Part shown: in pieces, positions 35,361 to 62,461 of the stretch
How positions within the stretch are numbered: the stretch's first letter is position 1
Layout: each line of letters starts with the position of its first letter
Assembly (NCBI GenBank): GCA_035532755.1
Contig: DATKQI010000279.1
Span: forward strand, 2,203 to 66,202
DNA length: 64,000 nucleotides
Origin: Acetobacteraceae bacterium
Lineage (GTDB): Bacteria; Pseudomonadota; Alphaproteobacteria; Acetobacterales; Acetobacteraceae
Direction of reading: 5' to 3'
Notes under the pieces: model-generated
Database searches by the model: none
What the model was told of the DNA's origin: nothing
The model's input: only the letters and a program-made list of their open reading frames with translations
Program-made: the position numbers and the translations under genes

Positions 35361-35966
35361 ATGACGGAAGCGGTGCTGCGCGTGCCCGTGCGGGAGCGGA
35401 TCCTGCGCACGGCGGCCCGGTTGTTCTACCGGCACGGGGTGCGTGCCGTGGGGATCGATACCATCATCGCCCGTTCCGGCGTGGCGAAGATGAGCCTCTA
35501 TCGCAGCTTCGCCTCGAAGGACGAACTGGTGGCGGCGTGGCTCGCCGAGCGCAATGTGGCGTTCTGGCGTCGCTGGGATGCGGCCGTGGCGGCTGCCGGA
35601 GAGGATCCGCGGGCAGGGCTGGAGGCGATCCTCGACATGGTGGCCGCGAGGGTTGCCGCCCCGGCCTGGCAGGGCTGCCCGTTCCTGAAGACCTGGGCGG
35701 AGTTTCCCGAAGGCGTGCATCCGGCCCGGCAGGTCATCGAAGCGAACCGGGTGGGGGTGCATGTCCGTCTTGCGGCCCTCGCGCAGGCCACCGGCGCGCG
35801 CGATCCGGCGCTGCTGGCGGACCAGTTGCAGGTGCTGATCGATGGTGCCTACATCAATGGACAGACCCATGGCCCGGGCGGACCCGCGTGTTGCGTGGCC
35901 GGCGCGGGGCGGGTGCTGATCGCCGCGCAAATCGGCAGACCGGACGGGGTGGGCGCGCCGATCTGA
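35361..35966 (+). CDS. TetR/AcrR family transcriptional regulator
   Basis: N-terminal HTH RILRTAARLFYRHGVRAVGIDTIIARSGVAKMSLYRSF. Confidence 0.9.
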   Translation: MTEAVLRVPVRERILRTAARLFYRHGVRAVGIDTIIARSGVAKMSLYRSFASKDELVAAWLAERNVAFWRRWDAAVAAAGEDPRAGLEAILDMVAARVAAPAWQGCPFLKTWAEFPEGVHPARQVIEANRVGVHVRLAALAQATGARDPALLADQLQVLIDGAYINGQTHGPGGPACCVAGAGRVLIAAQIGRPDGVGAPI

Positions 35967-35977
35967 GGTGTGCGTGA

Positions 35978-36298
35978 TGTCCGCGGCGGGATTCGAACCC
36001 ACGGCCCCAGGATTCATCCCACTTCGGCTTTCGCCGCCGCCGCGGGGCCTGCCCGTTGCGTTCGTGGTCTGGACTGTCCCTTCACCCTGGGCCGAGGGCG
36101 GTGTGTGCCCGGCCTTTAGGTGCCGCCCGTCCAGTCTCTACACCTTCCCGGGAAGGTCCCGGGCTTGGCTCGGGATCGGCAGGGCGCATCGGGCGCCACA
36201 GCTTTCCCCGACTTTGAGCGGTTCCGCCGCACCGTTTCCGCGTGCGACGCCCAGTTCGACAAGGAATCCTGTGCTCTATCCTGCTGAGCTACGCGGAC
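35978..36298 (-). tRNA. tRNA-Arg(CCU) gene split by a group I intron (5' exon 36298-36262, 3' exon 36014-35978)
   Basis: The joined exons give a 74-nt cloverleaf: acceptor GTCCGCG/CGCGGAC, D arm GCTC-AGCAGGATA-GAGC, anticodon stem CAGGA/TCCTG with loop TTCCTAA, T arm GTGGG-TTCGAAT-CCCGC, discriminator A. CCA is not encoded. Confidence 0.88.
36015..36261 (-). ncRNA. group I intron (IC3-like, 247 nt, no ORF) inserted between tRNA positions 36 and 37
   Basis: The 5' exon ends in U and the intron ends in G (GGGATG). The core strings GAGCCAAGC and GAAGGTGTAGAGACTGGACGG...CACCTAAAGGC closely match the Azoarcus tRNA-Ile intron core as I recall it. The P2-like hairpin carries a GGAAAC loop. Confidence 0.85.
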
Positions 36299-36367
36299 AA
36301 CGCGGCCGGACCATAAGGGGCCGAGGGACCGGGGGCAAGCGGGACAAAAAGGCGCCGCGACCGCAGA

Positions 36368-37285
36368 TTAGCGTTGCGGCATACCCTTCGGCACCATCGT
36401 CCGCACGATCGAGGCATCCAGCGCTTCGTATCCGGCATAGTCGATCGTTTCGTACAGCTCCGTTCGCGTCAGCATCCGGTCGATCTGGTTGTGCGCCCCG
36501 CCGTCATGCGCGATTGCGGCATATAGCGATTCCTGCGCCTTCGCCGCCACCCGCAGCGCGCTCACCGGCCAGATCACCATGCGGTAGCCCATCGCTTCGA
36601 ATTCCGCGGCGGTGAAGAACGGCGTCCGGCCGAACTCGGTCATGTTGGCGAGCAGCGGCGCGCTTACCCGTGCGGCGAATGTACGGAACATCTCAGCTGT
36701 GGTCAGTGCCTCGGGGAAGATCGCGTCCGCGCCGGCTTCCAAGTACAGTTTCGCGCGCGCCACCGCCCCATCCATGCCCTCGCTCGCCGCGGCGTCGGTG
36801 CGGGCAATGACGAAAAGATGCCGCCGCGCTTTTGCCGCCGCCGCCACCTTGGCTGCCATGTCATGCGGATCGGCGAGCTTCTTGTCGTTCAGATGGCCAC
36901 ATTTCTTCGGCAGCAGCTGATCCTCGATATGCACCGCTGCTGCGCCGGCCTCCTCGAAGGAGCGCACCATGTGCATCACGTTCAGCGCCTCGCCATAGCC
37001 GGTATCGCCGTCGACCAGCACGGGCAGGCCGCTCGCGCGCGCCACCTGCCGGATGTGGAAGCCGACCTCGTCAACCGTGATCACGCCCAGATCCGGAAGG
37101 CCCATCTGCGCGCTCATCGCGGCACCCGAGAGATAGAGTGCGTGGAATCCGGCACGCCTGGCCTGCAATGCCGCGAGCCCGTTCGGCGCGCCCGGAATGC
37201 GCAGGATGCCCGGTTGTGCCAGCAGCGCGCGAAAGCGGTCCCCGGCCAGGGCGGAAGGAGTGTCGGCGGCGACCAGATAGCTCAT
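36368..37285 (-). CDS. prpB: 2-methylisocitrate lyase (isocitrate lyase/PEP mutase family)
   Basis: DGDTGYG, KKCGH and MTEFGRTP motifs. Confidence 0.8.
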   Translation of the reverse strand: MSYLVAADTPSALAGDRFRALLAQPGILRIPGAPNGLAALQARRAGFHALYLSGAAMSAQMGLPDLGVITVDEVGFHIRQVARASGLPVLVDGDTGYGEALNVMHMVRSFEEAGAAAVHIEDQLLPKKCGHLNDKKLADPHDMAAKVAAAAKARRHLFVIARTDAAASEGMDGAVARAKLYLEAGADAIFPEALTTAEMFRTFAARVSAPLLANMTEFGRTPFFTAAEFEAMGYRMVIWPVSALRVAAKAQESLYAAIAHDGGAHNQIDRMLTRTELYETIDYAGYEALDASIVRTMVPKGMPQR

Positions 37286-37301: not shown

Positions 37302-38726
37302 TCAGACGAAAAACAGCAGCGTCAGCAGGGCGTAAACCGGCAGCAGGATACCCGCAACCCAGCCGATGTAGCCGAAGAAGCCCGGCATGCGGATGCCACG
37401 GTGCGCTGCGATCGACTGCACCATCATGTTCGGCGCGTTGCCTATATAGGTCAGCGCGCCGAAGAAGTTCGCCCCCGCCGCGATGGCCACCAGCAGATGG
37501 TTCAGCCTGCCGGTCAGCACGGCCGCGTCCCCGCCGGCCATCTGGAAGAACACGAGATAGGCCGGCGCGCTGTCCAGGAATGCCGAGACCACGCCGCTCA
37601 ACCAGAAATACATCGCCGCGACAGGCTGGCCGGCGGCATTCTCGGTCAGCCGCAGCAGGGGTGCCGCGGGGCCGTGCAGCCCCGCCGAAAGAATGGCGAG
37701 CATCGGCGTGATCGTGATGAAGATCGCGGCAAACAGCTTCGCCACTTCCGCCATCGGCGCCCACGCGAACATGTTGGCCTGCCGGACCGCAAGCGGTGTG
37801 AACCGGATCGACACCAGCGTGACCAGGAGGAATACGGCGATCGCCATCAACTGTTGGATGCCGACGGGCTGGCCGAGCAGCCTCACGCGTCCAGGTGTCC
37901 AGAGCCCTTGCAACAAAACCGCCCCAACCACCAATACCAGCAGCGCGATGTTGCCTGTTCCGCGCAGCCGCAGGCGCCCGGTCGGCGGGGAAGCCGGTTC
38001 CGAGGCCGCAAGATGCCGGTCATAGGCATGGAAGGCCGCCAGAAGGATGGCCGCGACCACCAGCATAGGCGCCAGCAGATAGCGGATCGGCCAGAAGAAC
38101 GGCACGCCTTCCAGGAACCCGACATATTGCGGCGGATTGCCCAGTGGCGAGGTGACACCCCCGACATTCGCGACCAGGATGATGAAGAACATCACCAGAT
38201 GCGTTTTGCGGGCCCGGTGCGCGTTGCTGCGCAGCAGAGGATGGATCAGTACCATCGCGGCCCCCGTCGTGCCCATCACGCCGGCGAGTGCGGTGCCGAT
38301 GGCGAGCAGCAGCGTGTTGCCCGCCGGCCGCCCCCAGGGTCCGCCCTGGACCAGGATGCCGCCGCCCACGGTGAACAGCGCCAGCAGCAGGGTCACGAAG
38401 GGCAGATATTCCAGCAGCAGGGCGCGCCAGACTTCCGCCGCGGTCATTGCCATGCCCTGATGCAATGCCTGCGGCACCACCAGAAGGGCGATCCACACCA
38501 GGCAGACCGTCCCCATGCGCCGATGCCACAGGCGGGGCGCAAACATCGGGAACAGCCCGATCGAGGCAAGCACTCCGAGGAACGGCACCCCCCAGATCAG
38601 GCCTGGAAGCGGCGTCGCTCCTTGCGCAGCCCAGCATCGCACCGGCACAAGGGTTGCGATGACCGCCGTGAGAGCCGACATCACGGGCACCTGATGCCGG
38701 TACGGCAGGCGGCGGCTTGGTTGCAT
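37302..38726 (-). CDS. ArsB/NhaD-superfamily permease (sodium:proton antiporter / citrate-transporter-like)
   Basis: Polytopic membrane protein. The start is uncertain (38726 or 38681). The N-terminal 78 codons of the track ORF overlap the coxG promoter region. Confidence 0.7.
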   Translation of the reverse strand: MQPSRRLPYRHQVPVMSALTAVIATLVPVRCWAAQGATPLPGLIWGVPFLGVLASIGLFPMFAPRLWHRRMGTVCLVWIALLVVPQALHQGMAMTAAEVWRALLLEYLPFVTLLLALFTVGGGILVQGGPWGRPAGNTLLLAIGTALAGVMGTTGAAMVLIHPLLRSNAHRARKTHLVMFFIILVANVGGVTSPLGNPPQYVGFLEGVPFFWPIRYLLAPMLVVAAILLAAFHAYDRHLAASEPASPPTGRLRLRGTGNIALLVLVVGAVLLQGLWTPGRVRLLGQPVGIQQLMAIAVFLLVTLVSIRFTPLAVRQANMFAWAPMAEVAKLFAAIFITITPMLAILSAGLHGPAAPLLRLTENAAGQPVAAMYFWLSGVVSAFLDSAPAYLVFFQMAGGDAAVLTGRLNHLLVAIAAGANFFGALTYIGNAPNMMVQSIAAHRGIRMPGFFGYIGWVAGILLPVYALLTLLFFV

Positions 38727-51264: not shown

Positions 51265-53833
51265 CGCGCAGAATCCTCTCCAGTTCGGGCACGCAGGTGC
51301 CGCAATGGGTGCCGGCCCGCAGTGCCGCCCCGATGGCGGCAACAGAGGCAAGCCCACCGCGCGCCACGGCCTGTTGCAGCGTGATCAGCCCCACTGCGAA
51401 ACAACTGCACACGATTGCCCCGCCCGGTTGCGCCACCGCGCCCCGCCCGGCCAGCAGCGCCTGTGCGTCTTCGCCCGCGAACAGGGCGGCGAGCGCGGCG
51501 CGATCGGGCAGGGGAGTGCCGCCGGCCGCCATGAACACGGCCGCCTGCAAGGCGCCCTCGCGCAGCAGCGCCAGCCGGAACATTCCGCGGCCGCTATCCT
51601 CGACCTCGATCCGCTGATCGCCCGCGCCCGCGCCAACCAGCGCGGCCGCGCTCGCCGGCGCTTCCCACCCCGCCAGCGTCAACGCATGCCCGCCCGCCAC
51701 CGGCACGCGCGACCAATACAGCGGACCCTCCGGGACGACCGGCGTGCGGCTGAGCAGGATCGCACGCCACAGGATCGGCAGCCGCTCCACTTGCGCGGGC
51801 GTCGCCTTCAGCTCGGGCTGGCCGGAGATGGGGTCGAGCGCGGTCGCGATCAGCCGCCCCACCGGGCCTGCGGAGACATGCGCATCCGTCCAGTGAATCG
51901 GGAGAAACACCTCGCCCGATCGCTGCGCCATACTCACCGAGCCTGTCACCACCGCGCTGCCCGTCGGGGTGGTGATGCGCAACAGATCGCCGGGCGCGAT
52001 GCGCAGCCGCGCGGCATCGTCCGGGGCGAGTGCGAGCGTCGGTGCATCGATATGCGTGAGCAGCCGTCCGATCCGTCCGGTGCGCGTCATCGTGTGCCAC
52101 TGGTCGCGCACGCGGCCGGTGTTGAGCACGAACGGGAAGGTCGCATCGGCCGCCCGCGCCGGTGCCCGCCACCGCACGGGAACGCAGCGCGCGCGCCCAT
52201 CGGGCGTGGGAAACCCGCCCGCGCCGAACAGCCGCGCTGGCCCGGCAACCGGCCAGCGTGTCGGCGAAAGCGCGTCGTACGCAGCGTCCGGCAACCCGGC
52301 CAGCGCGCCAAGATCGAAAATCCGCGTGCCGTCGTTCTCGAAACCCGACAGGGCAGCGTGTTCGCGGAAGATCGCGGCCACGCCCGGCCAGCCGAATTCG
52401 GGCGCGAAGCCCATCCGTTGCGCCACCTGTGCCAGTGCCCACCAATCCGGCCGCGCCACACCCGGTGCTGCGCGGAAGCGGCGCTGGCGGGAGATCACGC
52501 GCTCCGAATTCGTCACCGTGCCGTCCTTCTCTCCCCAGCCGGCGGCAGGCAGAACAAGATCGGCGCAGGCGGTGGTTTCGGTCGGCCAGCAATCGGAAAC
52601 CACCACGAATTCGCAGCGCCCGAGAGCGGTGCGCACTGCGCCTATATCCGGCAGGCTTGCCGCCGGGTTGGTGCCGATGATCCACAGCGCCCGCAACCGT
52701 CCATCCCCCGCCGCGGCGAACATCTCGGTCGCCTTCAGCCCCGGCCGTTCCGCGATGCGCGCGGCATTCCAGAACCGGCGCAGCCGGTCGCGGTCCGCCG
52801 GTTCGTCGAGCCGCAGATGGGCCGCAAGCTGCGTCGCCAGCCCGCCCACCTCCCGCCCGCCCATCGCGTTCGGCTGGCCGGTGAGAGAGAACGGCCCCAT
52901 CCCCGCCCGGCCGATCCGTCCGGTGGCCAGATGGCAGTTGATGATGGCGTTGACCTTGTCGGTCCCCGCGATCGATTGGTTCACGCCCTGGGAGAACGCG
53001 GTCACGCTGCGTTCGGTTTTGGCGAACAGCGCGTAGAACCGCCGGATATCCGCCGGATCGAGGTCAGTGCCGGCGGCGACCTGATCGATCCCGGCCTCCG
53101 CCCGAGCCGCCGCCACCGCCGCGTCCAGCCCCGCCACGTGACGCGCCACCCAGTCCTCCGCGATCGCCCCCGACTCGGCGAGAAACGCAAGCAGCCCGTT
53201 GAACAGCAGCACATCGCTGCCCGGGCGGAGGGCAAGATGCAGATCCGCCGCCTCCGCCGTCTCGGTCCGTCGTGGATCGATCACCACGAGCTTCGCGTCA
53301 CGTCTCGCGCGCATTCTCTGGAACAGCACCGGATGGCACCAGGCGGCATGGCTGCCGACCAGCACCACCAGGTCGGCCTGCTCGAAATCCTCGTAGACGC
53401 CCGGCACCACATCCTCGCCGAACGCCCGCAGATGCCCCGCCACGGAGGAGGCCATGCACAGCCGCGAATTGGTGTCGATGTTGGCGCTGCCGATAAACCC
53501 CTTCATCAGCTTGTTGGCAACGTAATAATCTTCCGTCAGGCATTGGCCGGAGACGTACAGCCCCACCGAATCCGGCCCGGCTGCGGCAATGGCGGCGGCG
53601 AACTCATGGGCGATCAGGTCGGTCGCGACCTCCCATGTCACCGGCTTGCCATGCAGCAGCGGCGTGGTGAGCCGCTCCGCATCGTTCAGCGTGTCGCCCA
53701 GTGCCGCACCCTTCACGCACAGCCTCCCGGCGTTGGCCGGATGATCGGGGTCGCCTGCGATGGTTCCGTCTGGCCGGGCGAGCACGCCGCAACCCACGCC
53801 ACAATAGGGGCAGGTGGTGCGCACCACGGTCAT
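51242..53833 (-). CDS. nasA: assimilatory nitrate reductase catalytic subunit (molybdopterin oxidoreductase) with C-terminal BFD-like [2Fe-2S] domain
   Basis: N-terminal 4Fe-4S motif TTCPYCGVGCG...C..KG and MopB domains. The C-terminal block is CSCFAV...CGTCVPE. Confidence 0.9.
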   Translation of the reverse strand: MTVVRTTCPYCGVGCGVLARPDGTIAGDPDHPANAGRLCVKGAALGDTLNDAERLTTPLLHGKPVTWEVATDLIAHEFAAAIAAAGPDSVGLYVSGQCLTEDYYVANKLMKGFIGSANIDTNSRLCMASSVAGHLRAFGEDVVPGVYEDFEQADLVVLVGSHAAWCHPVLFQRMRARRDAKLVVIDPRRTETAEAADLHLALRPGSDVLLFNGLLAFLAESGAIAEDWVARHVAGLDAAVAAARAEAGIDQVAAGTDLDPADIRRFYALFAKTERSVTAFSQGVNQSIAGTDKVNAIINCHLATGRIGRAGMGPFSLTGQPNAMGGREVGGLATQLAAHLRLDEPADRDRLRRFWNAARIAERPGLKATEMFAAAGDGRLRALWIIGTNPAASLPDIGAVRTALGRCEFVVVSDCWPTETTACADLVLPAAGWGEKDGTVTNSERVISRQRRFRAAPGVARPDWWALAQVAQRMGFAPEFGWPGVAAIFREHAALSGFENDGTRIFDLGALAGLPDAAYDALSPTRWPVAGPARLFGAGGFPTPDGRARCVPVRWRAPARAADATFPFVLNTGRVRDQWHTMTRTGRIGRLLTHIDAPTLALAPDDAARLRIAPGDLLRITTPTGSAVVTGSVSMAQRSGEVFLPIHWTDAHVSAGPVGRLIATALDPISGQPELKATPAQVERLPILWRAILLSRTPVVPEGPLYWSRVPVAGGHALTLAGWEAPASAAALVGAGAGDQRIEVEDSGRGMFRLALLREGALQAAVFMAAGGTPLPDRAALAALFAGEDAQALLAGRGAVAQPGGAIVCSCFAVGLITLQQAVARGGLASVAAIGAALRAGTHCGTCVPELERILRDAPTLAA

Positions 53834-56583: not shown

Positions 56584-57804
56584 CTAGATCCGTACGGCGC
56601 CGGTCGCGCCCGCCGCGTTCGTCCCCCACGTCGCGCGCCAACGGCGCTTTGCCACCGACAGGCCGAGCAGCGCCACCACCGCGAGCAGCGCGAAGATCAG
56701 GAAGCCCGACTGGTACGATCCGGTGATCTGCTTCGAATACCCAAGGCTGGAGGCGAGATAGAACCCGCCGATTCCGCCGGCCATGCCGACAAGCCCGGTC
56801 ATCACCCCGATCTCCCGGCCGAAGCGCTGCGGCACAAGCTGGAACACCGCGCCATTGCCCGCTCCGAGCGCCAGCATGGCGATCACGAACACGCCGAGCG
56901 CCATCGCGGCCGTCGGCAACCCCAGGCTGATCGCCGCGAGCGCGGCGGCGGCGATCACGTAAAGGCCGGTCAGCGCCCGCACCCCGCCGATCCGGTCGGC
57001 CAGCGCCCCGCCCACCGGGCGGACCATCGAGCCGGCGAACACGCAGGCAGCGGTGGCATAGCCGGCCGCCACCGGCGCCAGCCCATACTGATCGTGGAAA
57101 TAGATGGTGAGCGAGGAGGCAAGGCCGACGAAACCGCCGAACGTCACGCTGTAGAACAGCATGAGCCACCATGCGTCCGCATGCCGCAGAACCTTGAAGT
57201 AGTTCGGCAGCGGCTTCGGCGCCGGCTGGTTCGGGCTGTTCCGCGCCATCGCCAGATACAGCGCCAGCACGATCGCGAGCGGGATGGCGGCGAGACCGAA
57301 CACCGCATTCACGCCCACGGCCGCCGCCAGCCCGGGCGCGAAGAGTGCGGCGAGCACGGTGCCGGAATTGCCCGCCCCGGCGATGCCGAGCGCGACGCCC
57401 TGATATTCCGGCGGATACCACCGCGAGGCGAGCGGCAGCGCGACGGCGAAGGACGCGCCGGCCACCCCCAGCACGACACCCATCGCCAGCACCGCATGGA
57501 AGCTCGGCAGCCCGAACGCCCAGGCCGCCAGCAGCCCCGCGATCACGATCGTCTGCCCGAGCACTCCGGCAATCTTCGGCCCCATCCGATCGACCAGGAT
57601 GCCGCAAGCCACCCGCAGCACTGCCCCGGCGAGCACCGGAACCGCCACCATCAGCCCCTTCTGTGCGGGATCGAGATGCAGCTTGGCCGCGATCTGCACG
57701 CCCAGCGGCCCGAGCATGACCCAGACCATGAAGCTCAGGTCGAAATACAGGAAGGCGGCGATCAACGTGGGCGTATGACCAGACCGCAGAAAGGATTTCT
57801 TCAT
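56584..57804 (-). CDS. narK: NarK/NasA-family MFS nitrate/nitrite transporter
   Basis: 12-TM MFS protein. I chose the start at MKKSFLRSGH (57804). It is the first gene after the leader. Confidence 0.85.
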   Translation of the reverse strand: MKKSFLRSGHTPTLIAAFLYFDLSFMVWVMLGPLGVQIAAKLHLDPAQKGLMVAVPVLAGAVLRVACGILVDRMGPKIAGVLGQTIVIAGLLAAWAFGLPSFHAVLAMGVVLGVAGASFAVALPLASRWYPPEYQGVALGIAGAGNSGTVLAALFAPGLAAAVGVNAVFGLAAIPLAIVLALYLAMARNSPNQPAPKPLPNYFKVLRHADAWWLMLFYSVTFGGFVGLASSLTIYFHDQYGLAPVAAGYATAACVFAGSMVRPVGGALADRIGGVRALTGLYVIAAAALAAISLGLPTAAMALGVFVIAMLALGAGNGAVFQLVPQRFGREIGVMTGLVGMAGGIGGFYLASSLGYSKQITGSYQSGFLIFALLAVVALLGLSVAKRRWRATWGTNAAGATGAVRI

Positions 57805-58031: not shown

Positions 58032-59207
58032 TCACCTTATTTGCGCGAAACTAACCATATTGCCTGTTTTTTCATCGAATAAGGCGCCATCGCAGAACGC
58101 ATCGGCGCGCATCGGGATCGGCGCCGGGCTGGCCGGCAACATCCATTCAGACGGATGCCCACCCTCCACTTTCTGGTTCATCCACGGCACGCTCCAATCT
58201 TCCGCCCGGGCGGCGGCTTCGTGCAGATCCGGGCGATAGATCGCGGCCACCCGCGATCGTGTCGCGTCGTCTTCCGCCATCATCCCCCAGCGCGCCATCT
58301 GGCCGGCGAACCATCGCGCGTGCGATCGCCAGGGGAAAGTCGCGGCGTGGGCGGCGAACACCGAGCGCAGCGGATCATCCTGCGTTCCGGCCGATGGCAG
58401 GGAGGCGCGCACCATCTCCGCCGGCACGCTGAGATAATCCGGCCTTGCCAGCAGCCGGGCGAGCCCGTCCGCCTCGGCCGGGTCGTCGCACAGCCGTCCT
58501 GCGCGCAGCAGCCCGCGCAGCAGGGCATGCAGCCGCTCCGGCGCGGTCGCTGCCCAGTCCGCCCGCACGGCAAGACATTTCTCCGGGTGGTTGCGCCAGA
58601 TATTCGCGGTGCCGAGCACGATCCGGCCCGTTCCCGCTTGCGCCGCCATTCCGCCCCACGGCGCGCCGGCGCAGAACCCGTCGATGCGGCCGGCTTCCAC
58701 CGCCGCCACCATGGCGGCCGGCGGCAGCACGGTCAGCATCACGTCGCGCTCGGGGTCGATGCCGCTCGCGGCCAGCCAGTAGCGCAGCAGCAGATGATGG
58801 GTGGAATACCCATGCACCACCGCCAGTACCGGCCTGCGGCCCTGCCGCGCGATCGCCGCCCGCAGTCGCGCGCCCACCGCCAGCGGCGCGGGATTGCCGT
58901 CCAGCGCCGGATCGGCGAGGGCGGGGGCGAGCGCGATCGTGTTGCCGCCGAGGCTGATCCCGCCGGGCACCAGCAGCGACACCGCCGGGCCGCGCAGGCC
59001 CAGTGTCGCGGCGATGGCAAGCGGTGGCAGCAGCACCGCCCCTTCCAGCAGCCCCACCGCCAGCTTGTCGGCCAGGTTGGCCCAGGACGGCTCGACCGAC
59101 AGATCGACCGAAAGCCCCAGCGCATGGAACAGCCCCAGCTCCTGCGCCGCCACCAGCGGCGCGGCGTCGGTCAGCCGCAGCAGGCCGAGGCGGATCGTCT
59201 CCGTCAT
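58032..59207 (-). CDS. nasS: NrtA/CmpA-like nitrate-binding sensor protein without signal peptide (NasS)
   Basis: 391 aa with an NMT1/NrtA-like periplasmic-binding fold but a cytoplasmic-type N-terminus. It overlaps the nasT stop. Confidence 0.8.
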   Translation of the reverse strand: MTETIRLGLLRLTDAAPLVAAQELGLFHALGLSVDLSVEPSWANLADKLAVGLLEGAVLLPPLAIAATLGLRGPAVSLLVPGGISLGGNTIALAPALADPALDGNPAPLAVGARLRAAIARQGRRPVLAVVHGYSTHHLLLRYWLAASGIDPERDVMLTVLPPAAMVAAVEAGRIDGFCAGAPWGGMAAQAGTGRIVLGTANIWRNHPEKCLAVRADWAATAPERLHALLRGLLRAGRLCDDPAEADGLARLLARPDYLSVPAEMVRASLPSAGTQDDPLRSVFAAHAATFPWRSHARWFAGQMARWGMMAEDDATRSRVAAIYRPDLHEAAARAEDWSVPWMNQKVEGGHPSEWMLPASPAPIPMRADAFCDGALFDEKTGNMVSFAQIR

Positions 59208-59776
59208 GCCTTGTCCTCCTCGCCTGTCAGCATCTCCTGCGCGATCTCGGCGATGCGCCGGCCGCGCTGCATCGCCTGCCGGCGCAGCCAGTGATAGGCC
59301 TGCGGCTCGCTGATCCCGCGCTGCCGGATCAGTCTGGCTTTTGCCGCCTCGATCGCGGCGCGCTCGGCCAGCGCCTGTTCGGCCCGCTGCAACCCGCTTT
59401 CCACTTGCCGGAACCGCTCGAACATCGCCACCGCCGCCTGCACGATCGGCTTCACGTCGGGCAATGCCGCGCCCACCACGTTGTAGGAACTCACGCCCGC
59501 GGCGATCGCCTGCCGCATGAAGGCTGGATCGTCGGCATCGACGAACATCACGATTGGCCGCGGATTGTGCGCATAGGCGCGGCGGATGCCCTCAAGCCCG
59601 TCGCGGTCGGGCCGGGCCATATCGACGATCACGACATCGGGCTGCACACGCGCGGCGGCGGCGGCCAGCAGTTCTCCCGGCAATGGCCGCACCACCGCCA
59701 CGCGCTCCATAGCCGCCAGATCCGCGATCAGCGCCCGCGCGCGCGCCGGGTCGCCGTCAGCCAACAGAACCTTCAA
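59204..59776 (-). CDS. nasT: ANTAR-domain response regulator (NasT)
   Basis: Receiver-like N-terminus (KVLLADGD) and C-terminal ANTAR block (AKARLIRQRGISEPQAYHWLRRQAMQRGRRI). I chose the TTG start at 59776; the ATG alternative is at 59818. Confidence 0.8.
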   Translation of the reverse strand: MKVLLADGDPARARALIADLAAMERVAVVRPLPGELLAAAAARVQPDVVIVDMARPDRDGLEGIRRAYAHNPRPIVMFVDADDPAFMRQAIAAGVSSYNVVGAALPDVKPIVQAAVAMFERFRQVESGLQRAEQALAERAAIEAAKARLIRQRGISEPQAYHWLRRQAMQRGRRIAEIAQEMLTGEEDKA

Positions 59777-61306: not shown

Positions 61307-62461
61307 CTATCGCGCCTCGTTCTCGGCCAGGGCGGCGATCGTGCGCGTCAGGATGCGCAGGTCGTTGCGCAGCTCCGCCGTGCTCTGCACCCGCCCCTGT
61401 TCGGATTCCGCGAGCAGCCGCTGCAGCGCCACCTCGATGTTGCGCAGATGGGCGTGCGCCACCTCGTCCGACCGTGGAACGCTGTGCTCGCCCAGGCGCT
61501 GCAGGGCGGGGCCGAGCACGCTCTGCGTCTCCGCGATCCGCAGCATCAGCTGCTGGTTGGCGCGCATCGTGTCGCTGAAGCTGCTCAGCTTCTCGGCCAG
61601 TTGCAGCAGCGTCTGGTTGGCGTGTCCGCGGCTCTCCTCGCCGCGCCCCAGGATCGTCTGCAACCCTTCCATGTTCTCGGCGGTCTGCTCCAGCAGCGCC
61701 TGCACATAGATCGGCACCGAGCCTTCGCCCTCGCTGCCCAGCACGCCCGAAGACAGCCGGGTGAGCCCGGCGAGCCATTCCTCCAGCTCGTTGAAGAACC
61801 GGTTCTGCGCCTGCCCGGCGGTGAGGTCGAGGAAGCCCAGCACCAGCGCGCCGGCAAGCCCGAACATCGAGGAGGAAAATGCGGTGGCCATGCCGGAGAG
61901 CGGACCTGTGAGCCCTGTCTTCAACTGCTCGAACATCGCGTTCACGTCGCCGGTGCCCATGGTCATCCCGTTGATCACGTCGGAGACCGAGGCCACCGTG
62001 CGCAGCAGCCCCCAGAACGTGCCGAGCAGGCCGAGGAAGATCATCAGCCCGGTCATGTAGCGGGAAAGCTCGCGGCTCTCGTCCAGCCGGCTCGCGATGC
62101 TGTCCAGCAAACCCCGCATCGCCTGGGCGGACAGCGTGAAGCGCGCCTGCGGGTCGCGCGATTTCTCGGCTCGCGAGGCCATCATCCGCGCCATCGGTGC
62201 GAGCAGCCTCGGCGGCGGGATCGTGGCGAGCGACGGGCGGGACCGCTGGAACGCCTCCACCCAGTTCACCTCCGGCGACAGCCGCAGCACCTGGCGCAGG
62301 TTCCAGGCGATGCCGAGGATCTCGACCAGGAAGATCAGGCTGTTCAGCGGCGGGTTGTTGGCGAAGAAGACGCGCAGCTTCGGCAGCAGCAGCAGGGACA
62401 CGAGGATGACCACGGCAAGGAAGGCCAGCATGCGCAGCAGATAGGCGGTGGGGCGGGTCAT
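61307..62461 (-). CDS. MotA/TolQ/ExbB-family proton channel protein with a roughly 150-aa C-terminal helical tail
   Basis: Two N-terminal TMs plus the conserved C-terminal pair (GLLGTFWGLL...MATAFSSSMFGLAGALVLGF), then a helical tail. Confidence 0.75.
   Translation of the reverse strand: MTRPTAYLLRMLAFLAVVILVSLLLLPKLRVFFANNPPLNSLIFLVEILGIAWNLRQVLRLSPEVNWVEAFQRSRPSLATIPPPRLLAPMARMMASRAEKSRDPQARFTLSAQAMRGLLDSIASRLDESRELSRYMTGLMIFLGLLGTFWGLLRTVASVSDVINGMTMGTGDVNAMFEQLKTGLTGPLSGMATAFSSSMFGLAGALVLGFLDLTAGQAQNRFFNELEEWLAGLTRLSSGVLGSEGEGSVPIYVQALLEQTAENMEGLQTILGRGEESRGHANQTLLQLAEKLSSFSDTMRANQQLMLRIAETQSVLGPALQRLGEHSVPRSDEVAHAHLRNIEVALQRLLAESEQGRVQSTAELRNDLRILTRTIAALAENEAR

Follow-up and report, generated by a model that had tools for sequence, protein, structure and literature searches.

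We have found that the 64,000-nucleotide stretch of Acetobacteraceae DNA analysed here (the window) very probably carries a functional tRNA-Arg(CCU) gene that is split, between nucleotides 36 and 37, by an ORF-less, IC3-type group I intron belonging to a known alphaproteobacterial family. The two gene halves, the insertion site, the homology to other introns and a conserved, covarying fold are observed, and catalysis and splicing in the organism itself would be expected by analogy with the published behaviour of the family. The gene lies at 36298-35978 on the minus strand and consists of a 37-nt exon, a 247-nt insert and a second 37-nt exon, with the insertion point immediately 3' of the anticodon CCU, and the coordinates proposed in an initial annotation of the sequence hold. 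The insert begins TGTCGAAC and ends GTGGGATG (written out as TGTCGAACTGGG...GAAGTGGGATG); as that annotation had pointed out, the last nucleotide is a U in the 5' exon and a G in the insert (the omega-G, invariant in the 12 sequences aligned below), and its description of the insert as lacking an ORF was borne out.

When the exons were joined in silico, ARAGORN called a canonical tRNA-Arg(cct) of 74 nt. Its acceptor stem is perfectly paired over 7 bp, the D loop carries A20 and the anticodon loop reads UUCCUAA. The predicted spliced junction has ...GGAUUCCU joined to AAUCCUG... or, in a longer form, ...CAGGAUUCCU joined to AAUCCUGGGG.... Exon 1 shows no differences from exon 1 of two related loci, L045 and L064. 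The triplet following exon 2 is TCA (35975-35977, minus strand), so that CCA is not encoded and the 3' end of the tRNA must be finished after transcription; all of the 11 relatives used for comparison do encode CCA. Many bacterial tRNA genes normally have no encoded CCA. An identical locus is carried by two ENA metagenome contigs, with 100% identity over the 321 nt of the pre-tRNA, which is the length that was compared.

As the initial annotation had anticipated, the gene is missed by standard annotation: neither ARAGORN in its default mode nor Rfam at gathering score detected a tRNA-Arg(CCU) gene in the whole 64-kb window. With its intron search ARAGORN placed a tRNA split by an intron of 247 nt at c[35976,36299], shifting the boundary by 3 nt and naming the gene His(atg).

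The proposed group I class of the insert was upheld by a sequence profile, by a covariance model and by a covarying P1-P9 fold. An nhmmer profile made from 11 relatives, with the window left out, matched positions 36271-36005 of the minus strand end to end (model positions 1-251) with 209 bits and E=1.5e-63, and had no second match in the 64 kb. On a MAFFT alignment of the window and the 11 tRNA-Arg(CCU) relatives (12 sequences, alignment A1) a fold was drawn by hand that comprises P1, P2, P3, P4, P5, P6, P6a, P7 (as a pseudoknot), P8, P9, P9a and P9b. Standard pairs occupy 97.8% of the cells of this fold, as compared with 29-45% when the 3' partners were slid by 1-3 columns, and 20 pairs show compensatory changes; these values were reached by none of 500 shuffles. 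P3, P7, P4 and P6 thus pair on the P1-P9 scheme onto which the initial annotation had suggested that the insert be folded. A second alignment (A2) brought together 51 introns that interrupt other tRNA genes, without tRNA-Arg(CCU) introns and without the window. It gave the identical core fold, also 97.8% paired, with covariation in P3 (4/6 pairs), P4, P5, P6a, P7 and P8, the same helices in which compensatory changes are found across the A1 and A2 core.

A covariance model (R1) built from the 51 introns of A2, which reside in tRNA-Leu, Ile, Thr, Lys and Arg(UCU) genes, matched the P3-P7 core at 36226-36069 (minus strand) over the full model length with 119.3 bits and E=1.9e-30. No non-standard pair was flagged in this match, which is unique within the 64 kb. 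The E-values of the profile and of the covariance model both lie well outside what chance would give. Every core helix (P1, P3, P4, P5, P6, P7 and P9) is fully paired in the window, and the junction nucleotides that are invariant in the family are all retained. The folding energy of the intron (MFE -112.1 kcal/mol, z=-0.43 against shuffles) does not improve on shuffled sequence, a z-score which is uninformative at 69% G+C; the MFE structure still recovers P2, P3, P4, P5, P6a, P8 and P9. An RNAalifold consensus was also tried and was rejected: RNAalifold cannot draw a pseudoknot, and it wrongly paired the guide region with the 3' strand of P7 for that reason. The hand-drawn P7 was used in its place, and a switch from G-C to A-U at columns 162/221 supports it. 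The positions of the individual elements are collected in Table 1.

Table 1. Exons, intron and structural elements of the split tRNA-Arg(CCU) gene, in window coordinates
Feature	Position	Strand	Description
tRNA-Arg(CCU) exon 1, 37 nt	36262..36298	-	GTCCGCGTAGCTCAGCAGGATAGAGCACAGGATTCCT; GTCCGCG...GGATTCCT; acceptor 5' strand, D arm with A20, anticodon stem 5' strand, loop through CCU; ends at U36
Group I (IC3-type) intron, 247 nt, ORF-less	36015..36261	-	nhmmer E=1.5e-63; covariance model R1 119.3 bits, E=1.9e-30; paired-fold counts
P1 guide (IGS) GGG, intron nt 10-12	36250..36252	-	pairs with exon CCU 36262-36264; U.G wobble at 5' splice site
P2 hairpin	36225..36249	-	GAAA tetraloop 36235-36238
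P3 5' strand CCGCUC	36216..36221	-	partner 36123-36128; 100% paired in A1, 4/6 pairs covary in A2
P4-P5-P6 domain	36143..36211	-	P4 UCGGGG/UCCCGA, J4/5 AAA, P5/P5a, P6 CC/GG, P6a CCCGGG/CCCGGG
P7 5' strand G-[A bulge]-GACUG	36132..36138	-	partner 36071-36076; 100% paired
P3 3' strand GGGCGG	36123..36128	-	with P7 makes core pseudoknot; A1 and A2 fold counts
P8	36083..36122	-	tetraloop-receptor-like motif CCUAAAG...CAGGG; distal stem GGCCGGGC...GCCCUCGGCC longer than usual
P7 3' strand CAGUCC	36071..36076	-	invariant J8/7 GAAGGGA just before
P9 three-way junction	36019..36067	-	P9 CCAC/GUGG, variable P9a hairpin, P9b CGGC-GAAA-GCCG
omega-G	36015..36015	-	last intron nt, 3' splice site; G in all 12 sequences
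tRNA-Arg(CCU) exon 2, 37 nt	35978..36014	-	AATCCTGGGGCCGTGGGTTCGAATCCCGCCGCGGACA; AATCCTG...GCGGACA; A37 A38, anticodon stem 3' strand, variable loop, T arm, acceptor 3' strand, discriminator A

The P2-like hairpin with a GGAAAC loop that had been noticed at the outset is present, and its loop is a GAAA tetraloop closed by a G-C pair; 7 of the 9 pairs of P2 show compensatory changes, while the GAAA loop is invariant. In P7 the pair G130-C186 is changed to A-U in 4/12 sequences of A1 and in 42/51 of A2, and the G-C pair beside the bulged A (G-[A]-GACUG / CAGUCC), which is the putative guanosine-binding pair, is invariant in 63 sequences. The guanosine-binding role is assigned to this pair by analogy with G264-C311 of Tetrahymena. 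P8 measures 40 nt in the window versus 25-43 in the relatives, P9a measures 23 nt versus 12-22 and is the longest in the sample, and the P9b hairpin GGCGGCGAAAGCC is kept family-wide. The peripheral sequence that was initially regarded as extra therefore does not set the intron apart, as the P8 tip and P9a reflect length variation within the family, the whole intron has 247 nt against 222-252 nt, and GGCGGCGAAAGCC is conserved.

The GAAA tetraloops of L2 and L9b are both intact in the window and invariant among the relatives. The window motifs CCUAAAG...CAGGG in P8 and GCUGUGG...CCCUGC in P5 are close to, and not the same as, the canonical CCUAAG...UAUGG of many relatives. P10 is weak, with an A.C mismatch, and P9a contains an internal loop. 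A confident P9.0 pairing was not found.

Relatives of the intron were sought with a 20-nt core motif, AAGGTGTAGAGACTRGACGG, which, with one genome counted per species, was found at 120 loci at least. ARAGORN in intron mode reported a split tRNA at 108 motif sites among the matches listed, two of them in plasmid loci (L001 and L002), and the split genes are mostly tRNA-Leu(UAA), with Arg(CCU), Ile/Met(CAU), Arg(UCU), Thr and Lys also represented. At least 12 of the motif loci, among the matches listed, are introns in tRNA-Arg(CCU), and with at least 120 species genomes carrying the motif the view that such introns are rare is an overstatement. By record titles, the exact 20-nt motif also occurs in split tRNA genes well beyond cyanobacteria and proteobacteria, in Acidobacteriota, Eremiobacterota/Vulcanimicrobiota, Gemmatimonadota, Chloroflexota, Bacteroidota, Bdellovibrionales and an actinobacterium (Tsukamurella), and at least seven types of tRNA host carry an intron with it.

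The relatives used here are 11 alphaproteobacterial tRNA-Arg(CCU) genes with tRNA bodies like that of the window; a twelfth tRNA-Arg(CCU) locus (L115, from a MAG of the betaproteobacterium Herbaspirillum) was left out since its tRNA body is different. In all 11 the insertion is at the same site as in the window, and the introns have 222-252 nt. Their hosts include Rhodobacter sp. SW2, two Mesorhizobium species, Methylorubrum, Methylobacterium, Xanthobacter, Skermanella, Ca. Tokpelaia and an Acetobacteraceae MAG. Over the pre-tRNA (exons and intron) they are 70-84% identical to the window, the nearest among the matches listed being the Acetobacteraceae MAG with 83.6%. Over 141 core columns, the identity to the window is 69-88% for tRNA-Arg(CCU) introns (mean 81%, the four closest 85-88%), 63-84% for tRNA-Leu(UAA) introns (mean 76%, the best 80-84%) and 58-70% for tRNA-Ile(CAU) introns of the Azoarcus type. 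The four most similar cores, among the matches listed, are all tRNA-Arg(CCU) introns.

The first tRNA-Arg(CCU) group I intron was reportedly found in Agrobacterium tumefaciens by Reinhold-Hurek and Shub in 1992, and Paquin, Heinfling and Shub are said to have surveyed the alphaproteobacterial family in 1999. With a self-splicing member added in 2020, the family is thus already described and the window locus is one more example of it. The window intron shares with this family its host gene, the site after CCU, the lack of an ORF, a length of about 220-250 nt, the GGG guide, the GAAA loop of P2, the P3-P8 core and a P9 three-way junction with a GAAA hairpin. It differs in that its sequence is new, its P8 tip is longer, its P9a is the longest in the sample and CCA is not encoded in its host gene. 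Introns of the Agrobacterium and Bartonella type were likened to it by description, with those of Ca. Tokpelaia (Hyphomicrobiales) and Mesorhizobium serving as aligned proxies. In Bartonella bacilliformis, where the tRNA-Arg(CCU) intron was also un-annotated, as is typical of the family, in vivo splicing and in vitro self-splicing without protein were shown for the intron BbgpI in 2020 (PMC7717549).

Like the tRNA-Arg(CCU) introns, the tRNA-Leu(UAA) introns of alphaproteobacteria and other bacteria, which are of the cyanobacterial/plastid-type IC3, have the core, junction sequences and fold of the window intron. They differ in being inserted 1-2 nt earlier, after U34, in having the guide GAGU rather than GGG, and mostly in a simpler P9. 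The tRNA-Ile(CAU) IC3 intron of Azoarcus sp. BH72, a model system with a crystal structure, has about 205 nt and is shorter than the window intron. It was compared through proxies, namely the tRNA-Ile(CAU) introns of Polynucleobacter, Neisseriaceae and Propionivibrio. These resemble the window in the insertion after the third anticodon base, in a 3-bp P1 and in the GAAA of L2 and L9, and GAGCCAAGC and GAAGGUGUAGAGACU.GACGG are common to both; they differ in the guide (GUG), in a P4 of the UCGGCG type and in a P9 that is a single hairpin without P9a. The motifs GAGCCAAGC, GAAGGTGTAGAGACTGGACGG and CACCTAAAGGC, on which the initial annotation had based a near identity to the Azoarcus core, are all in the insert, and the likeness stands as far as such short core motifs go; it does not extend to the core overall, in which the introns of tRNA-Ile(CAU) reach the 58-70% given above and the closest introns are alphaproteobacterial ones of tRNA-Arg(CCU) and tRNA-Leu(UAA).

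A match to the Rfam group I model had been put forward as a check on the class of the insert, and this check turned out to mislead. RF00028 (Intron_gpI), with a gathering threshold of 50 bits, gave no match at gathering in the whole window, nor any match at E<=10 in positions 35800-36500; at both settings the Rfam tRNA model likewise matched nothing. When the model was applied to a control set of 8 confirmed relatives (L013, L030, L035, L045, L049, L064, L074 and L082), five scored 23.7-38.4 bits, below 50, and the other three gave no match. The three relatives missed are, among the matches listed, within the four closest to the window. Judged by these controls, the miss in the window, at which R1 gives 119 bits, is a false negative due to the low sensitivity of RF00028 for this subfamily. 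A plasmid-borne tRNA-Leu intron, described below, scored 36.8 bits. Standard annotation based on Rfam systematically overlooks the IC3 tRNA-intron subfamily.

The placement of the splice sites was decided in part by the guide. Directly upstream of P2, the guide tracks the anticodon of the host gene, with GGG facing CCU in 12/12 sequences (the window and its 11 relatives, all with P1 paired), GUG facing CAU in 6/6 and GCC facing GGU in 2/2; GAG occurs with CUU and, in tRNA-Leu introns, GAGU with ACUU. Such covariation of guide and anticodon would be expected if the two form a P1 whose U.G wobble lies at the splice site. The boundaries could alternatively lie 3 nt upstream, giving the anticodon AUG and a tRNA-His, which is the solution printed by ARAGORN in intron mode and likewise has a U before the insert and a G at its end. 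We regard this placement as extremely improbable, since the guide pairs only when the boundary is at CCU and the shifted exon end ...GAUU has no pairing guide sequence at all, and the anticodon would become AUG in some relatives and ACG in others with near-identical tRNA bodies, while CCU is constant. Furthermore, Sinorhizobium meliloti has a tRNA-Arg(CCU) gene without an intron, whose loop, UUCCUAA, is the same as that of the spliced window gene, and in Bartonella bacilliformis 5' RACE put the boundary at the same CCT (PMC7717549). Guide pairing, the constant CCU and the empty site of S. meliloti together place the boundary after CCU. It is likewise hardly conceivable that the RNA signal is incidental and that the 215-aa ORF which does occur at this locus (35968-36615, plus strand), overlying the tRNA gene, is a real protein gene. 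The ORF had been dismissed as spurious from the start and we agree, as it had no match in a Pfam search and was not called as a gene in either of the two metagenome contigs with the identical locus; in addition it is antisense both to a structured RNA that is supported at E=1e-30 to 1e-63 and to the 3' end of a PEP-mutase-family gene, in a window of 67% G+C, a composition at which long spurious antisense ORFs are common.

That the intron has decayed and is catalytically dead, leaving the split gene as a tRNA pseudogene, would be in keeping with the lack of an Rfam match, the change of CCA to TCA (unlike 11/11 relatives), the A.C mismatch in P10 and the P9a internal loop, which most relatives do not have. 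We consider this very unlikely, given that the core helices are fully paired with the invariant junction nucleotides in place, that the exons are those of L045 and L064 except for CCA, and that the P10 mismatch is common to L045 and L074, the closest relatives over the whole pre-tRNA; an unencoded CCA is normal in many bacterial tRNA genes. A genuine intron might instead depend on a host protein or an RNA chaperone and so be unable to splice autonomously in vivo or in vitro. Many group I introns do rely on protein cofactors (PMC3984707), and the enlarged P8 and P9a, together with the non-canonical receptor motifs of P5 and P8, could weaken tertiary docking. Such a dependence seems unlikely, as the Bartonella member self-splices in vitro without protein (PMC7717549) and the GAAA tetraloops of L2 and L9b are intact.

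For a self-splicing intron in a functional tRNA-Arg(CCU) gene, the reading which we favour, the course of events would follow the two-step pathway established for group I introns as a class (PMC3984707). The precursor would be transcribed from the minus strand and the intron would fold into its P3-P9 core with the P3/P7 pseudoknot, the guide GGG pairing with the exon CCU to form P1, in which a U.G wobble marks the splice site. The 5' splice site would then be attacked by a free guanosine bound in P7, after which the terminal G of the intron would take the same pocket and the freed 3'-OH of the exon would attack the 3' splice site. Ligation of the exons would yield a 74-nt tRNA reading AGG codons, and as CCA is not encoded, this pathway would need a CCA-adding enzyme to complete the 3' end. 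One could further imagine that the enlarged P8 tip and P9a and the missing CCA make splicing or maturation conditional, with the intron acting like a valve that controls how much AGG-decoding tRNA is supplied, or that the excised intron is a stable small RNA with a role of its own, an idea which comes from the high abundance of the Bartonella homologue; we hold both to be highly improbable.

As for its surroundings, the tRNA gene begins 69 nt downstream of the PEP-mutase/isocitrate-lyase-family gene (36368-37285, minus strand) and is convergent with a TetR-family gene (35361-35966, plus strand). A scan for promoters and terminators around the locus found no consensus matches. Rfam at gathering score reported zero RNA families (no tRNA, riboswitch or sRNA) over positions 1-64000, and the split tRNA-Arg(CCU) is the sole supportable tRNA gene in the window. 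ARAGORN also reported two over-long tRNA-Gly genes of 92 and 99 nt, at 52156-52247 (minus strand) and 59118-59216 (plus strand), and in intron mode two more split tRNAs, at 38231-38636 and 56744-56927, both on the minus strand. These four calls were rejected, as neither R1 nor, at gathering score, the tRNA model of Rfam supports them, and one of them falls within a CitMHS_2 transporter ORF; in a sequence of 67% G+C all four are probably false positives.

One of the plasmid loci retrieved with the motif merits a separate description. In pCTX-M3 (NC_004464.2, about 61823-62118; L001 3930-4225) an un-annotated gap beside an aac(3)-IId / tmrB-like resistance module contains a tRNA-Leu(UAA) gene that is complete and is interrupted by a group I intron of 221 nt. 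The same split tRNA-Leu(UAA) is present on 1270 PLSDB plasmids, from E. coli, Klebsiella, Salmonella, Acinetobacter, Vibrio, Aeromonas and others. The plasmid gene is about 89% identical to the intron-bearing tRNA-Leu(UAA) genes of two alphaproteobacteria, a Novosphingobium MAG and Rhodovulum steppense, which suggests capture of the resistance segment from a chromosome of this kind. A literature search found no paper tying the plasmid tRNA-Leu intron to the resistance module.

The value of the finding is in large part one of annotation. With default ARAGORN and Rfam at gathering score, the organism would seem to be without a tRNA for AGG codons, and the spurious 215-aa ORF could be called in place of the tRNA gene. 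Since RF00028 under-scores these introns and a single motif led to more than 100 split tRNA genes from many phyla, a dedicated IC3 tRNA-intron model is worthwhile and would improve the tRNA annotation of genomes and MAGs. Biologically, the locus adds one further data point to a well-described family.
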